Assembly (NCBI RefSeq): GCF_056712565.1
Contig: NZ_CM160072.1
Reading direction: 5' to 3' (one strand)
DNA length: 64,000 nt
Shown here: in pieces, positions 54,335-61,953 of the stretch
Position numbering within the stretch: the stretch's first letter is position 1
Layout: every line of letters begins with the position of its first letter
Made by a program: the position numbers and the translations under genes
The notes under the pieces: generated by a model
Seen by the model: only the letters and a program-made list of their open reading frames with translations
Databases searched by the model: none
Told to the model about the DNA's origin: nothing

Positions 54335-54460
54335 CGAAAAGTGGACATTAGAGTTACAAAAGCAAGTTTAAATCATCCAAAATATTACAATGTCCTTATC
54401 TATCTGATATCGTTATGATAAAAAGCTCCTGAATATAATCGATAGTAGGTGGTTATTTCC

Positions 54461-54838
54461 ATGAAATCAATTTTAGAGGTCTTTACTCAAGGAAATACTA
54501 AAGAAAAACTGGCTGTTATCGCCGATCTCACAACCATTGCGGGAATATCGATTGCAACTATTATTGCTGGTTTGTTAACCCTAGTTGCAAAAACAGATAA
54601 ACTAGATGTTGGAAATCTGTTTGGAGTTGTCATAATATCTCTGCTCGGATTGGCTGGTGTTTGCTGTTTTGTGGCCTTATTTATTTGGGTTATAACCCAA
54701 ATGTCTAAACCATGGGGAACACCTCGGGGGGTTCAGCCCTTAGTTAAGTGTGCTATTTCCCTTATCTTTATCTGTATGTTTTTGCTGGCTGTCTTTACAT
54801 TTTATGAGTTTATTTCTTCGATGAGCATACGCTATTGA
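54461..54838 (+). CDS. Small three-TM-helix membrane protein of unknown function (prophage cargo)
   Basis: ORF 54449..54838; ATG at 54461 (MKSILEVFTQGN); three hydrophobic helices; AT-rich; convergent with the recombinase gene. Confidence 0.5.
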   Translation: MKSILEVFTQGNTKEKLAVIADLTTIAGISIATIIAGLLTLVAKTDKLDVGNLFGVVIISLLGLAGVCCFVALFIWVITQMSKPWGTPRGVQPLVKCAISLIFICMFLLAVFTFYEFISSMSIRY

Positions 54839-54860
54839 ATATAAAATCAGCCCCCATAAC

Positions 54861-55547
54861 TTAAAAGAGACCTTCTATATCGACTTCAATGCCCAAATAA
54901 CGGACTGTGCTTTCCAGTTTCTTATGGCCCAACAGAAGTTGGATCACCCGGAGACTCTTGGTTTTCTTGTAGATTAAGTAAGGTTTTGTTCTTCTCATGG
55001 AATGTGTGCTGTACAGCGAATCTTCGAGACCAAGCTTTTCTACCCACCCATGAAAAATTCGGTTGTATTGCCGGGTTGATATATGGTGGTTAGTTCCGAC
55101 CCGAGAGCGGAACAGGAAGCCTTTACTATGCCAGTTGCCGAGCTTTATCAATGCAGTAACCGCTTCCCTTGTCCCTTTGGTTATCTCAAATTGGACAGGG
55201 CTGCCGGTTTTCTGTTGCAACACCGTTGCTCTGCTTGAGACAGAACTGCCATATGCAGCATCTGATACTTTGAGTTTGACCAAATCACAGCCCCGTAGCT
55301 TAGTGTCCAAAGCCATGTTGAACAGAGCTAGATCGCGTGTTTTACCTTCCAACTCAAGTCTAATCCGGATCCCCCAGATATGAAATATCTGAAGTGGCCT
55401 TTTTTGACCGATGGTACGGTCTTTATTCCACGGTGACGTTTTCATATTCAAATCTCCTGCAATGTGGGAGATTTGAGTATGGTTGTCTCTCAAGAGCGAA
55501 AATAAGTCAACTATCACTAGTTGTTGCGCATGTACGTATTCTGTCAA
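54861..55547 (-). CDS. Short tyrosine-type site-specific recombinase (catalytic domain with only ~50-aa N-terminal extension)
   Basis: 228-aa ORF with the tyrosine-recombinase motif series: R in DTKLRGCDL, HSMRRT (H-x-x-R), LLGH, Y in TVRYLG; starts 4 nt after the stop of the upstream 280-aa gene. Confidence 0.6.
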   Translation of the reverse strand: MTEYVHAQQLVIVDLFSLLRDNHTQISHIAGDLNMKTSPWNKDRTIGQKRPLQIFHIWGIRIRLELEGKTRDLALFNMALDTKLRGCDLVKLKVSDAAYGSSVSSRATVLQQKTGSPVQFEITKGTREAVTALIKLGNWHSKGFLFRSRVGTNHHISTRQYNRIFHGWVEKLGLEDSLYSTHSMRRTKPYLIYKKTKSLRVIQLLLGHKKLESTVRYLGIEVDIEGLF

Positions 55548-56291
55548 TTAATTATTGACAATCATCAATTCTGGAATGATCAAAATCATCATATCGAATT
55601 ATAGTCTGGTTGACTGTATCTATTGTTGGTGTCATTTCTGTTATAATATCCTGATAACCTAAAGAGTTAAATACATTTACTAAGGCCTCACACCGAAGGG
55701 CCGTAGCAATTACAAAATTATAAATTGCCAGCCGTTTATTTTCTTGTTTAACTGCAAGAATGAATTCGATAGCAGTATTTTCATCACTTTGGATTGCATT
55801 ATATAGAGATACTATATTTACCATATCATCAGAGAATGTATGTATTGAATCACAAAGGGGAACGTAATGGGCATGATAGTGTGTTTCCCAGCCAATTAAT
55901 TCAAAAAGTCTTCTGGTTCCTGGATATTCAGGTGTATTTGGCCACAATCTATTAAATAGATCAGTTAGTTCTTTTCCCATGCGAATCCTTTCATTTGCTG
56001 CTGGATTAGTCATTCCTTTGGATTTTAAACACTCCAGCCACCGTTTTCCATTACTATGAACTAATTTCTTACTAGCCTTGAGTAATGCTTGTGCATTTTC
56101 GCCATCATCTATTGCTATATAAAATTGATTGGCAGCCTGTTCTATTATAACCCTAGCTAATACTTCCGATGCTGAAAAGGCTCCTATATTCAAAGAAGAG
56201 ATAGCCTGATTACTAAGTTCATTCAGTACATTAAAGTACTGTAAGACCATCAATTTTTGTTCCACACCCTTTAGGTTGTCTGGATTTGCCC

Positions 56292-57197
56292 CTATATTTC
56301 CAGACACCTGTTATCACTTAACCCATTACTGGCTTGCTGCCGTAGATATTCCCGTGGCGAGCGATAACCCAGTGCACTATGCGGATGCCATTCGTTATAA
56401 TGCTCGAACGCCTCTGCAAGGTTCTTTGCTGCCGTTAACCCGTCTGGTTTGGGCATGACACTGATGTAGTCACGCTTTATCGTTTTCACGAAGCTCTCTG
56501 CTATGCCGTTACTCTCCGGACTCCGCACCGCCGTGCTCTTCGGTTCAAGCCCCAACATCCGGGCAAACTGCCGTGTTTCATTAGCCCGGTAGCATGAACC
56601 ATTATCCGTCAGCCACTCTACTGGAGACGCCGGAAGCTCGTTGCCGAAGCGGCGTTCCACCGCTCCCAGCATGACGTCCTGTACTGTTTCACTGTTGAAG
56701 CCGCCCGTAGTGACCGCCCAGTGCAGTGCCTCACGGTCACAGCAGTCCAGCGCGAACGTGACTCGCAGTTTTTCTCCGTTATCACAGCGGAACTCGAACC
56801 CGTCAGAGCACCATCGCTGATTACTTTCTTTCACAGCCACTCTGCCTGTATGTGCCCGTTTCGATGGCGGTACAGCAGGTTTTCGCTCAAGCAACAGCGC
56901 ATTCTGGCGCATGATCCGGTAAACACGTTTGGCATTGATCGCAGGCATACCATCAAGTTCTGCCTGTCTGCGAAGCAGCGCCCATACCCGACGATAACCA
57001 TACGTGGGCAGCTCTCCGATAACATGGTGTATACGGAGAAGCACATCCGTATCATCAGTGTGACGACTGCGGCGGCCATCCATCCAGTCATCGGTTCGTC
57101 TGAGAATGACGTGCAACTGCGCACGCGACACCCGGAGACAACGGCTGACTAAGCTTACTCCCCATCCCCGGGCAATAAGGGCGCGTGCGCTATCCAC
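56292..57197 (-). CDS. insD: IS2 transposase OrfB (InsD, DDE catalytic domain)
   Basis: 301-aa [41 protein letters not shown]. Confidence 0.9.
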
Positions 57198-57520
57198 TTT
57201 TTTGCCCGTCCATATTCAACGGCTTCTTTGAGGAGTTCATTTTCCATCGTTTTCTTGCCGAGCAGGCGCTGGAGTTCTTTAATCTGCTTCATGGCGGCAG
57301 CAAGTTCAGAGGCAGGAACAACCTGTTCTCCGGCGGCGACAGCAGTAAGACTTCCTTCCTGGTATTGCTTACGCCAGAGAAATAACTGGCTGGCTGCTAC
57401 ACCATGTTGCCGGGCAACGAGGGAGACCGTCATCCCTGGTTCAAAGCTCTGCTGAACAATTGCGATCTTTTCCTGTGTGGTACGCCGTCTGCGTTTCTCC
57501 GGTCCTAAGACATCAATCAT
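57155..57520 (-). CDS. insC: IS2 OrfA (InsC, HTH); fused to OrfB by -1 frameshift in the 57155..57197 overlap
   Basis: ORF 57155..57565; start set at [26 protein letters not shown]. Confidence 0.85.
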
Positions 57521-57768
57521 CTGCTCTCCAATGACTAGTCTAAAAACTAGTATTAAGACTATCACTTAAATAAGTGATATTGGTTGTCTGGAGATTCAGG
57601 GGGCCAGTCTATTGTCTATTTTATTTTTATGCTCCTCAAATTTTGCATGGATATATTTATTTATCGCGGCTATTTTTTTTACATCTTCGTCAAGATCAAA
57701 CGGGCAACGTCCAAACAATTCTTTTTTCATATATTTCTCCTGTTGTACAAGCTTCCATAAGTTGGCAG

Positions 57769-57774
57769 ATTATA
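57769..57774 (-). promoter_or_regulatory. Candidate sigma70 -10 hexamer (TATAAT) ~40 nt upstream of the 280-aa gene start
   Basis: Plus-strand attata at 57769..57774; no clear -35 identified. Confidence 0.3.
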
Positions 57775-57962
57775 CACTGAAGATTACCTATAAATAGCTG
57801 TGCGGGATAGCAGATCAGTGCAAGAAGTACAACCAAGTGAACTGTGCGTATTCAGATACCTGGCCTAACGTTCGCGATAGCCGTCCCCTGCACGAAGCCA
57901 TATATTAGATGTATTAGCTCAGACCTTATCTGACAGGTTGAGTAGGTAGAATCTAATCAAAG

Positions 57963-57980
57963 CTGACAGTCTGGTTTGGA
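57963..57980 (+). repeat. Copy 2 of the motif (ctgacagtctggtttgga), same orientation as copy 1
   Basis: Direct repeat of copy 1; together they bracket the whole cargo module. Confidence 0.7.
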
Positions 57981-58080
57981 CTGTGAGTTCAACCGATGGA
58001 TGCAACACACAGCGATCTACGGACATTACTAGCATAGCTGTGTATTAATCATCGGGAAGCAGGTCAGTCCGCTCCTAGCA

Positions 58081-58096
58081 CAGAGCAGACTGTCAG
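58081..58096 (-). repeat. Copy 3 of the motif, inverted (minus strand reads ctgacagtctgctctg)
   Basis: Inverted relative to copies 1 and 2; 102 bp from copy 2; sits in the loop of a 10-bp perfect stem (58076..58085 with 58108..58117). Confidence 0.7.
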
Positions 58097-58151
58097 ATTA
58101 GGCTTTACTCTGTGCTATAGATACGTTAGCTCACTCCAGAGATCATACAAC

Positions 58152-58679
58152 TTATTGCGGCATTTCCGGCCATTCAGGATTTGCAGGATCCACACGGCTG
58201 ACCAGAACACTGTAGCGTTCCCATGCTTCCAGTCGGCTACGCTCCTCATCTGTTGCCATATTCAGTCTGACAGAGCGTTCCAGTGGCTGAATGATAGTTT
58301 CAGCTTCGGAAAGCAAAGCTGACTTCTGTAATTCCGCCAGTTGCAGCTGTTCGTCTGCCGTATAAATCCGCTTAATCACGGCACCATCCTTAAACATCCA
58401 TTTACCTGAGTCATCAGCACGTCGGTTGGCGGTAATATCAGGAACCTCGACAACGCTAAAACCTTCAGGGTTGAGCGTTGAAGCATCTCTGGTGATGCCG
58501 ACAATTATATTATTCTCATCGTAAACAATCTTTATCGTGTCTTCCTGAAAATTACTTACTTCCTCATACCAGTTTTTTCCCTCTTCGGACCATAACCAGA
58601 TAACATCAAAATTTTTTGTCAGTTGATATTGGGCAACAGTTTTTGGATTACCCGCAGTAATATTTTTTAAATGCTGCAT
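58152..58679 (-). CDS. G: P2 gpG-like tail fibre assembly protein
   Basis: 175-aa ORF immediately downstream of the tail fibre gene. Confidence 0.85.
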
Positions 58680-58682
58680 AAA

Positions 58683-61412
58683 TTACACCTGTGCGACGTT
58701 ATACCATGTGCCATTGATGTATTTTTGTATTGGTCTGAATACTGCGGGGTCATCACCATCGACTTCACCGACAATACCAAGCCCGGTAATTACGTGCCCT
58801 GCTTTCTCATACATCACCCCTTTCTGCATGGTCTGGACAACACGTGTGCCAAGTCTGACATCTCTCACATAGCGGGAATCAAAGTTACCGTAATCCGAGG
58901 GATTAACACGCCCCGTAATATTTATGGTTTTATTACTTTGAACGCTTCCGGAGACAAAGCGCATAACATGGACGCTATTAGCATAAACATCCAGATTACC
59001 ATCACCATTTTGTTTAAAGCCCGTGTCATTATCACCCAAAACAATCGAATTACCGCCAAGAGCACTGGATGTTCCTATACCCAGAGCACCATTCAATTGA
59101 CCACCAGATAACGGCAGTGCACCGACATCTCCCGCTGTAGGTTTTCGCGTTGTGGTATAAAACTCAGACCAGTCAGCCTCGAATCCGTAACCGTCACGAG
59201 CAGAACGATAAAAAATACCACCGTTCTTATAATTAACGCGAAACTGGGCGGCGGGACAACTTCCTTCCCCGATATTAAAATGAAGAATTAACGTTGATGC
59301 CCCACCAATAGTTGCGTTATAGGCTCCGCTACTCCAGTTCCATCCAACGGCTTTATCATTCGCAACGGTGTCTCCTGTTTTTCCTGAAGCAAATGCACCA
59401 ATATTTTTCGGCGTCAGGTTAATATCTGATGTTCCATCAAACGAAACGTTATTAATTTTACGGGCTGTTTTCAGCTTTGTTGCTGTCGCCGCATTGCCGG
59501 ACAGTTCACCAGAAAGGCCAGCACTGAATGTCTGTTTCGCGCCCCATGTCTGGGCTTCGTCGATAATTGGCACACGTCTTGTCGTGATCGTGCGGCTTCC
59601 CGGATTTCCTGAAATACGCACCATAAAAAAGCGGTAGTTGGCTTTACTTACAGTGCTGCGCCATACATGCATTGAGCGTCCCGAACCAGAATCATCACTC
59701 GGACCGACTGAGATGTTTATCAGGTTGCCATCAATGACGCCCCAGTCCATACCGTCGGGAATATTGGTCATGTTATCCAGCCGAACGGTTATCAGACTGC
59801 CCGGCACAAAATCGTATGTCTGCCAGTCCAGGCTGGTGAGTTTTGCCACTGCGCCACCGATACCCAACTCTAACGGCAAAGAGTTTGAGTTATAAATCTG
59901 TCGCCACTCCCCCCACGCGTTAAATGAGCCACCAAGAAACACTCGCTCATATAAACGGTCTTTTGTAGCTGCGCTGGTTCCTGTGGTCGTGTAACGTTGC
60001 AAAACATAGACACCATCCTTGCGCCTGATGACTTCCAGAAAACCAGACTGCCCCTGGATTGGGGTGTGGGTCGCTTTGCCTGTCACACTGTAAATACCTG
60101 GAGACATCAAATCATCCAGGTCATCCTCATAGAAGGTACTACTGGTCTGATAACCAATTTGGATCCAGTCTTCCCACTGTGGATTTTCTGCATCCCATTT
60201 GGCTGTCAGGCCGCGAATATACATAGTCCCGTTACGGGTTGTATAACGCTGTGTGCGTCCATATAGCCCACCTTCGAAAATTTCCAGAATGCCCTGCGCG
60301 TCTCCTCCCTGCTCGGGGTAATGTCGTTCAAAAGAAGCTATTGCTGAACTGCTGTTTCTCCATAGACCTAAATGTTCTGCGCCACCGAGAGAGTTAAGGT
60401 CAATGGTCGTACTTAGAGCTCGCGTTACAGCCTGAACATGGCGCCATGCTCCCCATGGTCCATCATTACCATTCCATGTTCCAATGAGTTTGCGGATATA
60501 CAAATTTCCGTCACGTGTGGTATAGCGTTGCGTGCCTGCAAAATTGCCGCCAGTAAAAACCTCAAGCACACCGACAGCATTATCTTCAGGGAAGTTTTTC
60601 TCCAGTGTTGCGTTGGTGGACGTTGCTTTAGACCAGATACCTGAATAAGCCTTAACAGAACCAAACGTATTCAGATCAGCATCAACCGGCATTTCGCCAT
60701 TGTTTTTCATAAACGTCAGGCTGGTAACGCCAACATTGTCCAGAAAAGCTGATTTATCCTGGATATCTGCACCATTCTGATTTTTCGCCAGACGTGAATT
60801 TGCGTTGTCATTTGCTGCCTTGACCGCTTTTGGCGTTGCTGCCAATGACTCACTGGTGCTGTTTGTTGCACTGCTTAACTGAGTAAAACCTTTTTCTGTC
60901 AGCGTGGCGTCAGGATGGCGGCGGGACTGCTCATGCTCTGCGATTTTGTCATCGACGTAATCCTGCGTCGCCATCACTGTGCTGGCATCAATACTCAGCT
61001 CAACGGACGCCACGTTACTGACAATAATAACCATGCGGCAGGTCTGCGCACGCCCGGAGCCTTCAGCCAGTTCTGGCTTATAGCTTTCAGCCATGTTGGA
61101 TACCGCAATCAGTGTTCCGGCATCGTCATACAGACCAAGCTCACGCATCCAGAAGCCGCCCACTTCGGGCGGTACAACCAGTTCAGCCACGATATAGTTT
61201 TTATTCTTGTTATCCACGCTGACTTTATTCAGAGCGTGACGCCAGACCTCATGCACCAGTTTCGTCTGACCGGCATCCGGCACCGGCAATTTGCCATTAC
61301 CGTCACCCACGGCCATTGCAGACAGGGTTACTTTTTTCCCGCCGGGGACAGTGGCGGCTGCCAGCTTTGCGGCTCCGGCAGTAGTGATAACGGTTTTAAA
61401 TTTCGTGCTCAT
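58683..61412 (-). CDS. H: P2 gpH-like tail fibre protein (long variant, 909 aa)
   Basis: N-terminus MSTKFKTVITTAGAAKLAAATVPGGKKVTLSAMAVGDGNG is P2 H-like; extended Gly/Thr/Ser-rich distal region. Confidence 0.85.
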   Translation of the reverse strand: MSTKFKTVITTAGAAKLAAATVPGGKKVTLSAMAVGDGNGKLPVPDAGQTKLVHEVWRHALNKVSVDNKNKNYIVAELVVPPEVGGFWMRELGLYDDAGTLIAVSNMAESYKPELAEGSGRAQTCRMVIIVSNVASVELSIDASTVMATQDYVDDKIAEHEQSRRHPDATLTEKGFTQLSSATNSTSESLAATPKAVKAANDNANSRLAKNQNGADIQDKSAFLDNVGVTSLTFMKNNGEMPVDADLNTFGSVKAYSGIWSKATSTNATLEKNFPEDNAVGVLEVFTGGNFAGTQRYTTRDGNLYIRKLIGTWNGNDGPWGAWRHVQAVTRALSTTIDLNSLGGAEHLGLWRNSSSAIASFERHYPEQGGDAQGILEIFEGGLYGRTQRYTTRNGTMYIRGLTAKWDAENPQWEDWIQIGYQTSSTFYEDDLDDLMSPGIYSVTGKATHTPIQGQSGFLEVIRRKDGVYVLQRYTTTGTSAATKDRLYERVFLGGSFNAWGEWRQIYNSNSLPLELGIGGAVAKLTSLDWQTYDFVPGSLITVRLDNMTNIPDGMDWGVIDGNLINISVGPSDDSGSGRSMHVWRSTVSKANYRFFMVRISGNPGSRTITTRRVPIIDEAQTWGAKQTFSAGLSGELSGNAATATKLKTARKINNVSFDGTSDINLTPKNIGAFASGKTGDTVANDKAVGWNWSSGAYNATIGGASTLILHFNIGEGSCPAAQFRVNYKNGGIFYRSARDGYGFEADWSEFYTTTRKPTAGDVGALPLSGGQLNGALGIGTSSALGGNSIVLGDNDTGFKQNGDGNLDVYANSVHVMRFVSGSVQSNKTINITGRVNPSDYGNFDSRYVRDVRLGTRVVQTMQKGVMYEKAGHVITGLGIVGEVDGDDPAVFRPIQKYINGTWYNVAQV

Positions 61413-61422
61413 TGTTTCTCAC

Positions 61423-61953
61423 TTATCCGGGATAAACAGTAATAACATCACCATCACAGACCACACCGCCTGTATACAGACAGCCGGGAATGTCCTGGAT
61501 AATGTTCAGACCGATAAGGTGGCGACTTGCGGGTTTGGCATCGGCAATAAGCCGTTCCATTTCCAGATACATCTCCTCCGTGATGCCGCTTTCCAGCACA
61601 CCGATATCAAGGCGAAAGGTTCCGGGCGGGTCGTTTGTCTCCCACCATTCCTTTACGTTAATGAGATAGCCGAGCGGCTCCACCACACGCCGGATTGCGC
61701 CTATAGTGCCCTTATGGCAGTGAATGAAATACGCATCGCGGATAACGGCGCGTTTTGTTGCTTCCGGCCACTTTTCATCCCACCTGTCAACAGAAAACGC
61801 CCACGCCAGCCACGGCAGCAGATTTGCCGGACAGGTGTCCGGGTTCCACAGCTCACGAATACTGACCGGCGTTTTTTCAATTTCCGCACAGGCTTTTGCG
61901 GCGGCAACTTCAAGCGGTGATGAGCCGGTCGGCAGCAGGCGCGAATCACTCAT
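61423..61953 (-). CDS. I: P2 gpI-like baseplate protein
   Basis: 176-aa ORF; position between J and H. Confidence 0.88.
   Translation of the reverse strand: MSDSRLLPTGSSPLEVAAAKACAEIEKTPVSIRELWNPDTCPANLLPWLAWAFSVDRWDEKWPEATKRAVIRDAYFIHCHKGTIGAIRRVVEPLGYLINVKEWWETNDPPGTFRLDIGVLESGITEEMYLEMERLIADAKPASRHLIGLNIIQDIPGCLYTGGVVCDGDVITVYPG

Follow-up and report, generated by a model that had tools for sequence, protein, structure and literature searches.

The H gene of this prophage encodes a tail fibre protein much longer than that of phage P2, which raises the question of what the additional length consists of and whether it gives the phage a different host range. According to the list of reading frames in the window (the whole 64,000-nucleotide stretch of DNA that was analysed), the H frame is intact and lies exactly where it was originally predicted, beginning with ATG and specifying 909 amino acids (aa). 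The length of about 670 aa that had been given for P2 H is also correct, the reference protein having 669 aa (NC_001895, 12734-14743; NP_046775.1). A gpI-like reading frame is followed after 10 nucleotides by H and then by a 175-aa gpG-like frame, and the same I-H-G order is found in the corresponding locus of E. coli ATCC 11775. The gene occupies the H position of a Peduovirus late operon, V-W-J-I-H-G, with a Caudo_TAP chaperone gene after it. It is very probably the H gene of a P2-like (Peduovirus) E. coli prophage, encoding a modular mosaic of the long 'L-413C type'. The reading frame, its synteny, the homologies, the domain folds and the variability map are direct observations; the features are as follows.

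58683-61412, minus strand: tail fibre gene H, L-413C type, an open reading frame of 909 aa plus stop with an ATG start
60960-61412, minus strand: Phage_tail_fib baseplate-attachment domain, aa 1-151 (PF12571, E=1.7e-57, full profile)
60792-61412, minus strand: P2 H-like N-terminal segment, aa 1-207 (84% identity to P2 H aa 1-207)
60780-60905, minus strand: Phage_fiber_2 repeat, one copy, aa 170-211 (PF03406, E=1.6e-20)
60423-60710, minus strand: knob-like domain 1, aa ~235-330, with TQRYTTRDG (repeat statistics, AF2, Foldseek, profile match)
60138-60422, minus strand: knob-like domain 2, aa ~331-425, with TQRYTTRNG (37.5% identity to knob 1, E=4e-23; same model and fold matches)
59877-60137, minus strand: knob-like domain 3, aa ~426-512, with the degenerate LQRYTTTG (31% identity to knob 1, E=1.6e-4)
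59553-59876, minus strand: fourth, divergent knob-like beta domain, aa ~513-620
59409-59552, minus strand: widespread tail-fibre shaft repeat, aa 621-668, GNAATATKLKTARKINNVSFDGTSDINLT (multi-copy matches in long fibre proteins)
59115-59408, minus strand: Mu S'-like module, aa 669-766, Pfam gp37_C (PDB 8ju3 match; PF12604, E=6.6e-6)
58686-59111, minus strand: distal tip, aa 768-909, of the P2 H / Mu S C-terminal family (P2 H, L-413C and Mu S matches)
58152-58679, minus strand: tail fibre assembly chaperone G, 175 aa (Caudo_TAP PF02413, E=6.7e-34; 89% identity to P2 G)

The two H proteins are alike neither in length nor in sequence throughout, and the match to P2 H is confined to the ends. The N-terminal likeness that had been claimed is borne out by the 84% identity over aa 1-207, and aa 768-909 align with P2 H aa 472-669 at about 52% identity with a 56-aa gap. 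The central 560 aa (208-767) have no counterpart in P2 H, to whose aa 208-471 they are unrelated, so that collinearity over the whole length fails. Replacement of 264 central residues by 560, together with a tip 56 residues shorter than that of P2, yields 909 rather than 669 aa. The proteins share the slot between I and G as well as the N-terminal segment and a homologous tip. However, P2 H contains neither the knob block nor the Mu S'-like module, and unlike the window protein it has a second Phage_fiber_2 repeat and a Gp34_trimer domain. The distal two-thirds of the protein, which had been regarded as distinct as a whole, are thus non-P2 over the central region but P2-like over the last ~140 aa.

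The QRYTT-type repeats that had been noticed in the distal region have firm statistical support. The motif occurs at aa 295, 388 and 472, within three tandem repeats of ~90 aa. By segment-wise BLASTP and Smith-Waterman alignment against shuffled sequences, the first and second repeats are 37.5% identical (E=4e-23, z=27) and the first and third 31% identical (E=1.6e-4, z=6.7); a BLASTP self-comparison of the whole protein gave no internal matches, the repeats surfacing only in these two kinds of comparison. No repeats are detectable at the DNA level in 57600-61500, arguing that the knob copies are old and not recent duplications. The accompanying claim of richness in Gly, Thr, Ser and Asn is correct in direction (35.5% in aa 304-909 versus 28.5% in aa 1-207), but the effect is weak and comes nearly all from Gly (13.0% versus 6.8%).

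Homologues of H carry the name 'pyocin knob domain-containing protein' in the source records. Pfam searches with the single knob domains (E up to 1) returned no family and an NCBIfam search with the whole H protein returned nothing, and the 'pyocin knob' label was therefore tested by structure prediction and profile search. The AF2 monomer model of aa 215-625 has a pLDDT of 85.7 (about 90-95 in knob domain 1) and consists of four beads joined by low-confidence linkers. Its best PDB matches are knob-bearing fibres, namely those of R1/R2 pyocin, phi11 gp45, phi812 and P68. In Foldseek searches, knobs 1 and 2 match the R1/R2 pyocin fibre and phi11 gp45 (E about 3e-7 for knob 1), and the knob region has a profile match to 6cl5_A with E=4e-8. 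The structure prediction that had been proposed as a check identifies the extra length as four tandem knob-like domains followed by other modules, each knob being modelled as a small antiparallel beta-sheet domain of knob fold.

Comparison with other coliphage fibres and R-type tailocins, also proposed in the original prediction, revealed relatives in both groups. The R1/R2 pyocin fibres of Pseudomonas aeruginosa (PDB 6CL5, 6CL6) carry tandem knobs of the same fold in mid-fibre and share the plan of a fibre that binds the baseplate at its N-terminus, has a binding domain at its distal end and is served by a chaperone of its own (PMC6116203). They differ in having two knobs instead of four and a lectin-like beta-sandwich as tip instead of the Mu S/P2 H type, and their identity to the window knobs in structural alignments is only 14-16%. 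All four knobs recur as one block of 386 aa in gp37 of about 200 Tequatrovirus-type genomes, at 53-60% identity and 98-99% coverage; with gp37 of T-even phages such as RB14 and RB6, identity over the entire block is 55-60%. T-even gp37, the distal subunit of the long tail fibre (RB14, RB6, Shigella phage JK23), shares this block but belongs to another phage family, and its N-terminus joins gp36 rather than the P2 baseplate.

Distal to the knobs, the shaft repeat at aa 621-668 matches many long fibre proteins in multiple copies in a representative search, and aa 631-690 are 100% conserved among the ten family members compared. The following module, aa 669-766, is identical to residues 320-417 of Mu S/S' (PDB 8ju3) at 79 of 98 positions (~81%; 170.6 bits, i-E 4.9e-49). 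Within the tip, aa 833-908 match the C-terminus of Mu S (5yvq) and aa 783-855 match S16 gp37 (6f45); the whole-sequence E values are 4.6e-72 for 8ju3 and 1.5e-32 for 5yvq. The last 80 aa of H are 75% identical to P2 H and about 99% (98-100%) identical to L-413C. The tip is presumed to be the LPS-binding end and to depend on the chaperone. The fibres S/S' of phage Mu, with their chaperones U/U' (PDB 5YVQ, 8JU3), share the distal modules and also the repeat at aa 167-233, but they are ~500 aa long and lack the knob block. Unlike Mu, the window has no invertible G segment and no second, inverted set of fibre and chaperone genes. No second fibre end or chaperone lies downstream among the window reading frames or in the ATCC 11775 locus. 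Likewise, 57600-61500 contains no signs of an invertible segment and no significant flanking inverted repeats, only two weak ones of 27-28 nt (75-81%).

The closest well-studied relative is gpH of the plague-diagnostic Yersinia phage L-413C (AAP04455.1, 913 aa), which aligns with H from end to end with 746 of 914 positions identical (82%) and 6 gap positions. The I-H-G context is the same and aa 1-240 and 631-909 are 97-100% identical, while the knob region (aa 241-630) is another allele, 27-87% identical per 30-aa bin. L-413C gpH is likewise a mosaic of four parts, P2-like over its first 207 and last ~140 aa and foreign in the middle, and such a mosaic with the same P2-like boundaries (~207 and ~137 aa) has been published for it (Garcia et al. 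2008, via PMC7460101). Labelled L-413C gpH attaches to cells of Y. pestis (PMC7460101), and an R2 pyocin equipped with the L-413c fibre kills Y. pestis (PMC11464564, citing Williams 2008). The novelty implied for the window protein finds no support: the architecture was already known from L-413C (Garcia et al. 2008, via PMC7460101), has been used to retarget R-type pyocins and is common in E. coli prophages.

Full-length homologues are found in about 30 phage records at up to 97.6% identity, the closest being Escherichia phage 899 and Yersinia phage GMG73 (about 97.5%); nine further homologues from phages, 909-919 aa long, can be aligned from end to end. Phage 899, which comes from a uropathogenic strain, has the window's knob allele. 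E. coli ATCC 11775 has a 100% identical gene, whose product (WP_000104719.1) is annotated 'phage tail protein', and at least 14 further complete E. coli genomes, including strains labelled APEC O1/O2:K1:H7, have one too. Of the 5426 complete genomes of E. coli, 170 carry the gene at 80% coverage or more.

Variability among ten members of this family is confined to aa 241-510 and 841-900. Variation is greatest in knob 3, of which these ten otherwise near-identical fibres have at least three alleles; leaving phage 899 aside, the nine compared relatives are just 43-70% identical over aa 451-510. Divergence of G follows the tip variant across relatives. Along H the G+C content falls from ~0.54 (5' end) to ~0.44 (3' end). 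This fall and the different nearest relatives of the modules (T-even gp37, Mu S', P2 H/Mu S) support a recombinational origin of H. The fibre protein runs from a P2 H attachment domain through four knobs, a common repeat and then a Mu S'-like module to a P2 H/Mu S-type tip. We infer that it forms a trimer. Its N-terminal domain would attach it to the baseplate, and chaperone G, encoded downstream, presumably assists the tip in folding. By analogy with L-413C and P2 on Y. pestis, the tip with G may recognise the LPS core. The main effect of the knob block would be a longer shaft, and it may also make a lateral contact with glycan as a second site. The family would diversify as alleles are exchanged, both in the knob block and in the tip+G cassette.

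It had been proposed that H carries a swapped receptor-binding region and therefore has an altered host range. The first proposal is only partly right, because the shaft has been exchanged and enlarged while the tip family is kept (75% identity to P2 over the last 80 aa, 89% for G). A swapped tip was considered and rejected, since over the last 80 aa P2 H is nearer to the window protein than is the 919-aa subfamily, whose tips are 46-48% identical. The second proposal does not follow: on Y. pestis, L-413C and P2 vir1 need the same critical LPS-core residue, the terminal GlcNAc (PMC3182234), and the tip of L-413C is 99% identical to that of the window protein over the last 80 aa. Host range may nevertheless differ through the variable knob region.

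One alternative, unlikely but the best of those considered, is that the knob block and not the tip is the main determinant of host range, acting as a swapped-in lateral site for a glycan such as O-antigen, capsule or outer core. If so, the swapped receptor-binding region of the original prediction would be essentially right. In its favour, variability within the family is highest in the knobs, knob 3 above all. R1/R2 pyocin fibres also have their most diverse sequence at Knob2 and the C-terminal domain, knob-like domains appear in fibres and spikes that bind saccharides, and a model of binding at two sites has been proposed for P2- and Mu-type fibres (PMC6116203). However, L-413C and P2 vir1 are wholly different in this region and yet require the same LPS-core residues on Y. 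pestis (PMC3182234). L-413C, vB_YpM_22 and vB_YpM_50 have different knob alleles with the same tip, and all are recorded on Y. pestis. In addition, the same block forms part of the gp37 shaft in about 200 T-even phages. Receptor recognition in T-even phages is attributed to the fibre tip or to the gp38 adhesin. The preferred reading remains a long shaft with a P2/Mu-type tip as the main receptor-binding end.

It is very improbable that H survives merely as a relic of a defective prophage and yields no working fibre. The same prophage does contain a 1330-bp IS3-family element 540 bp downstream of G, a sign that the prophage is accumulating insertions, and the window stops within the tail genes, the head genes lying beyond its range. 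However, the insertion is in a non-essential cargo locus between G and FI, outside the structural genes (PADLOC gave no matches for the three cargo genes there). Furthermore, neither H nor G is disrupted, and many genomes contain copies of them that are 100% identical. An H of 97.6% identity is present in isolated phages, and in ATCC 11775 the identical locus comes with terminase, capsid, lysis, baseplate and tail genes, a full complement of P2 type. That the gene encodes the fibre of an R-type tailocin, as the R-pyocin-like knob fold and the names of homologues might suggest, is scarcely credible given the Peduovirus gene order and sequence, the capsid, scaffold and terminase genes beside the tail genes in ATCC 11775, and nearest relatives that are complete phage genomes of 31-34 kb. 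Both readings were considered and rejected on these grounds.

The protein is already in RefSeq (WP_000104719.1), and as a discovery the finding has little weight. Its value is for annotation: two length classes at least, one of 669 aa and one of 909-919 aa, go under the name "P2-like H", and a long H can occur in records labelled "Peduovirus P2". The long form is best divided into four: the P2 attachment domain, the shaft of four knobs of T-even gp37 type, the Mu S'-like module and the P2/Mu-type tip with G. The variability map marks two exchangeable zones, the knobs and the tip+G, as sensible targets for host-range engineering. A more speculative and rather doubtful extension is that the four-knob block provides a second, lateral glycan site and that exchange of knob alleles tunes the phage to the E. 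coli surface types on which it orients itself; if this is true, the window allele would be adapted to the surfaces of extraintestinal pathogenic E. coli.

The tail fibre gene H is intact and stands where it normally does in a P2-like prophage, between I and G. The coordinates originally predicted for it, 58683-61412, coincide exactly with an ATG-initiated reading frame, and the ORF call gives the following arrangement:

61423-61953, gpI-like ORF, ending 10 nt before the start of H
58683-61412, minus strand, H, ATG start, 909 aa
58152-58679, minus strand, tail fibre assembly chaperone G, 175 aa, after H (Pfam Caudo_TAP; 89% identity to P2 G)

The tail fibre H of reference phage P2 (NP_046775.1; NC_001895, 12734-14743) is 669 aa long, in agreement with the original prediction (about 670 aa), and the window protein exceeds it by 240 aa. 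By BLASTP the two align in only two parts. One is aa 1-207 of the window protein (84% identity); the other, aa 768-909, matches P2 H 472-669 at about 52% identity, with 56 residues of P2 H missing from the window protein. Identity to P2 H reaches 75% over the last 80 aa. In the same BLASTP comparison the central 560 residues find no counterpart among the 264 that form the centre of P2 H. The length balance is therefore a central gain of 296 residues and a loss of 56 in the tip, and with only their ends aligning the two proteins are not alike throughout in either length or sequence. The prediction of a distinct distal region holds as to distinctness, but the distinct part is the central shaft (aa 208-767) and the fibre end is still of the P2 type; likewise, the proposed swap stands as a replacement by recombination, though it was the shaft that was replaced and not the tip, and the altered host range drawn from it stays putative. 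H is a modular protein, and its attachment domain and its tip with the chaperone are members of P2/Mu families. The G+C content of the gene, about 0.54 at its 5' end, falls to about 0.44 at the 3' end and is 0.38-0.41 where H meets G, which agrees with a mosaic origin.

This long architecture is already known. The 913-aa gpH of Yersinia phage L-413C (AAP04455.1) is collinear with the window protein (746/914 identities). Published work treats it as a hybrid of four parts, its N-terminal 207 aa and C-terminal 137 aa being P2 H-like and the stretch between them being pieced together from other enterobacterial fibre sequences (Garcia et al. 2008, as summarised in PMC7460101). The mosaic boundaries of the window protein are the same as those reported for L-413C.

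Only four features are recognized by Pfam, namely the N-terminal attachment domain (aa 1-151), a single Phage_fiber_2 repeat (aa 170-211), gp37_C (aa 677-752) and, weakly, gp37_trimer; it has no model matching the repeats of H. The repeated motif noticed in the sequence is real, with QRYTT at aa 295, 388 and 472 within three tandem repeats of about 90 aa. The first and second repeats are 37.5% identical (E=4e-23; Smith-Waterman z=27 against shuffles) and the first and third 31% (E=1.6e-4, z=6.7). No repeat is left at the DNA level in 57600-61500, and the duplications are accordingly old. The reported richness in Gly, Thr, Ser and Asn is only weakly true (35.5% in aa 304-909 versus 28.5% in aa 1-207), and the excess is essentially glycine.

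An AlphaFold2 monomer model of aa 215-625 (mean pLDDT 85.7) consists of four beta-rich beads, with confidence dips at the linkers between them (aa ~325-334, 415-424 and 515-524). A Foldseek search of the PDB with this model finds the phi11 gp45 receptor-binding protein, the R2/R1 pyocin fibres (6CL6, 6CL5) and the phi812, 80alpha and P68 fibres, all at E ~3e-7 and probability 1.0. Homologues of aa 208-668 were gathered (2002 representatives at E<=0.001), and the sequence profile of 36 of these, trimmed and aligned, by itself retrieves the knob region of the R1 pyocin fibre (E=4e-8). As modelled, the extra domains of H are the "knob" domains of Buth et al., whose list of structural relatives includes phi11 gp45 and T4 gp34 (PMC6116203). 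Many of the homologues are already named "pyocin knob domain-containing protein" in public sources. At 53-60% identity and 98-99% coverage, the whole four-knob block (386 aa) also occurs in about 200 T-even phages, for example RB14 and RB6, and in Shigella phage JK23, as part of gp37, their distal long-tail-fibre subunit.

Beyond the knobs, a common fibre repeat (aa 621-668) precedes a segment, aa 669-766, that resembles residues 320-417 of the Mu S/S' fibre 8JU3 (79/98 identical, counted from the alignment; i-E 4.9e-49). Further on, aa 783-855 resemble gp37 of Salmonella phage S16 (6F45) and aa 833-908 the C-terminal domain of Mu S (5YVQ). A Mu-like invertible arrangement is absent: the sequence downstream holds no second fibre end or chaperone, and the region has no meaningful inverted repeats.

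Among ten family members of 909-919 aa, variation is confined to the knob region (aa 241-510) and the tip (aa 841-900). Between alleles, of which there are at least three, identity in knob 3 drops to 43%, and the tip has two variants, 37-50% identical to each other; the window protein carries the L-413C/vB_YpM variant (98-100%). Variation is moderate in aa 181-240 (80-100%) and aa 511-630 (63-83% against L-413C), and aa 1-180 and 631-840 are 93-100% identical in all comparisons. G is 89-95% identical to relatives with the same tip variant and 71-75% to those with a different tip, which fits a tip-plus-chaperone cassette.

Judging from the families named, H would trimerise and bind the baseplate by its N-terminus, G would help the tip to fold, and the tip would recognise the LPS core. 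Labelled gpH of L-413C, the nearest relative that has been characterised, binds Y. pestis cells (PMC7460101), and an R2 pyocin with the L-413c fibre kills them (PMC11464564, citing Williams 2008). L-413C needs the terminal GlcNAc of the LPS outer core and the inner-core heptoses, and P2 vir1 does likewise (PMC3182234), which argues that the primary receptor is set by the shared tip family and not by the exchanged centre. For this reason the knob block is most likely a longer shaft. A less likely but live rival is that it makes a secondary, lateral glycan contact, since it is the most variable zone of the family, and since Buth et al. place R-pyocin diversity in Knob2 and propose that P2/Mu-type fibres bind at two sites (PMC6116203). 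That H is a relic gene can be dismissed, because both H and G are intact and recur unchanged in many genomes, the identical locus of E. coli ATCC 11775 has a full head, lysis and tail gene set, and H occurs at 97.6% identity in phage isolates; a tailocin is dismissed on that gene context too.

Between G and the tail sheath gene FI, at the position of Z/fun in P2, lies a cargo ("moron") locus (54449-57800) of low G+C (0.33-0.40), interrupted by a 1330-bp IS3-family element:

57155-57565, minus strand, IS3-family transposase ORF, 136 aa, presumably IS2-like
56292-57197, minus strand, IS3-family transposase ORF, 301 aa, overlapping the 136-aa ORF
55552-56281 and 57612-57729, minus strand, DUF5677 gene split by the element (intact in ATCC 11775: 280 aa, WP_000711883.1)
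54861-55547, minus strand, short tyrosine-recombinase-like gene
54449-54838, opposite strand, 129-aa ORF, "hypothetical" in ATCC 11775

The element (56282-57611) leaves the N-terminal ~40 codons of the DUF5677 gene at about 57729-57612 and the remainder in an ORF at 55552-56307. The ATCC 11775 locus, otherwise 99.98% identical, lacks it, and among the complete E. coli genomes of the collection none spans both junctions (best coverage 90%). A target duplication is suggested by the 5-6 bp that the two flanking alignments have in common. PADLOC finds no match for the three cargo genes, and in L-413C, phage 899 and P2 the position is taken by different genes in each case.

The ATCC 11775 copy of H (WP_000104719.1, annotated "phage tail protein") is 100% identical, as are those of at least 14 further complete genomes, some of them from human isolates and some from strains labelled APEC O1/O2:K1:H7; H is present at >=80% coverage in 170 of 5426 complete E. 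coli genomes. Full-length tblastn matches occur in 30 of 50,697 phage records, led by Escherichia phage 899 and Yersinia phage GMG73 (about 97.5-97.6%), then Yersinia phages vB_YpM_50/22 and several Peduovirus isolates (84-90%), with L-413C at 81.6%. Peduovirus P24A7b (LR595887.1, 12732-15356) has a P2-like H of 874 aa, about 73% identical to aa 1-671 of the window protein, knob block included, after which come a different distal end and an assembly protein of the TfaP/TfaQ type, apparently a third tip-plus-chaperone cassette on the same shaft. A 919-aa H of the L-413C type also occurs in OU784746.1 ("Peduovirus P2") and NC_070906.1 ("Escherichia virus P2"), versus 669 aa in reference P2. The species label is thus no predictor of fibre type, and "Peduovirus P2" on records with the long H is an annotation trap.
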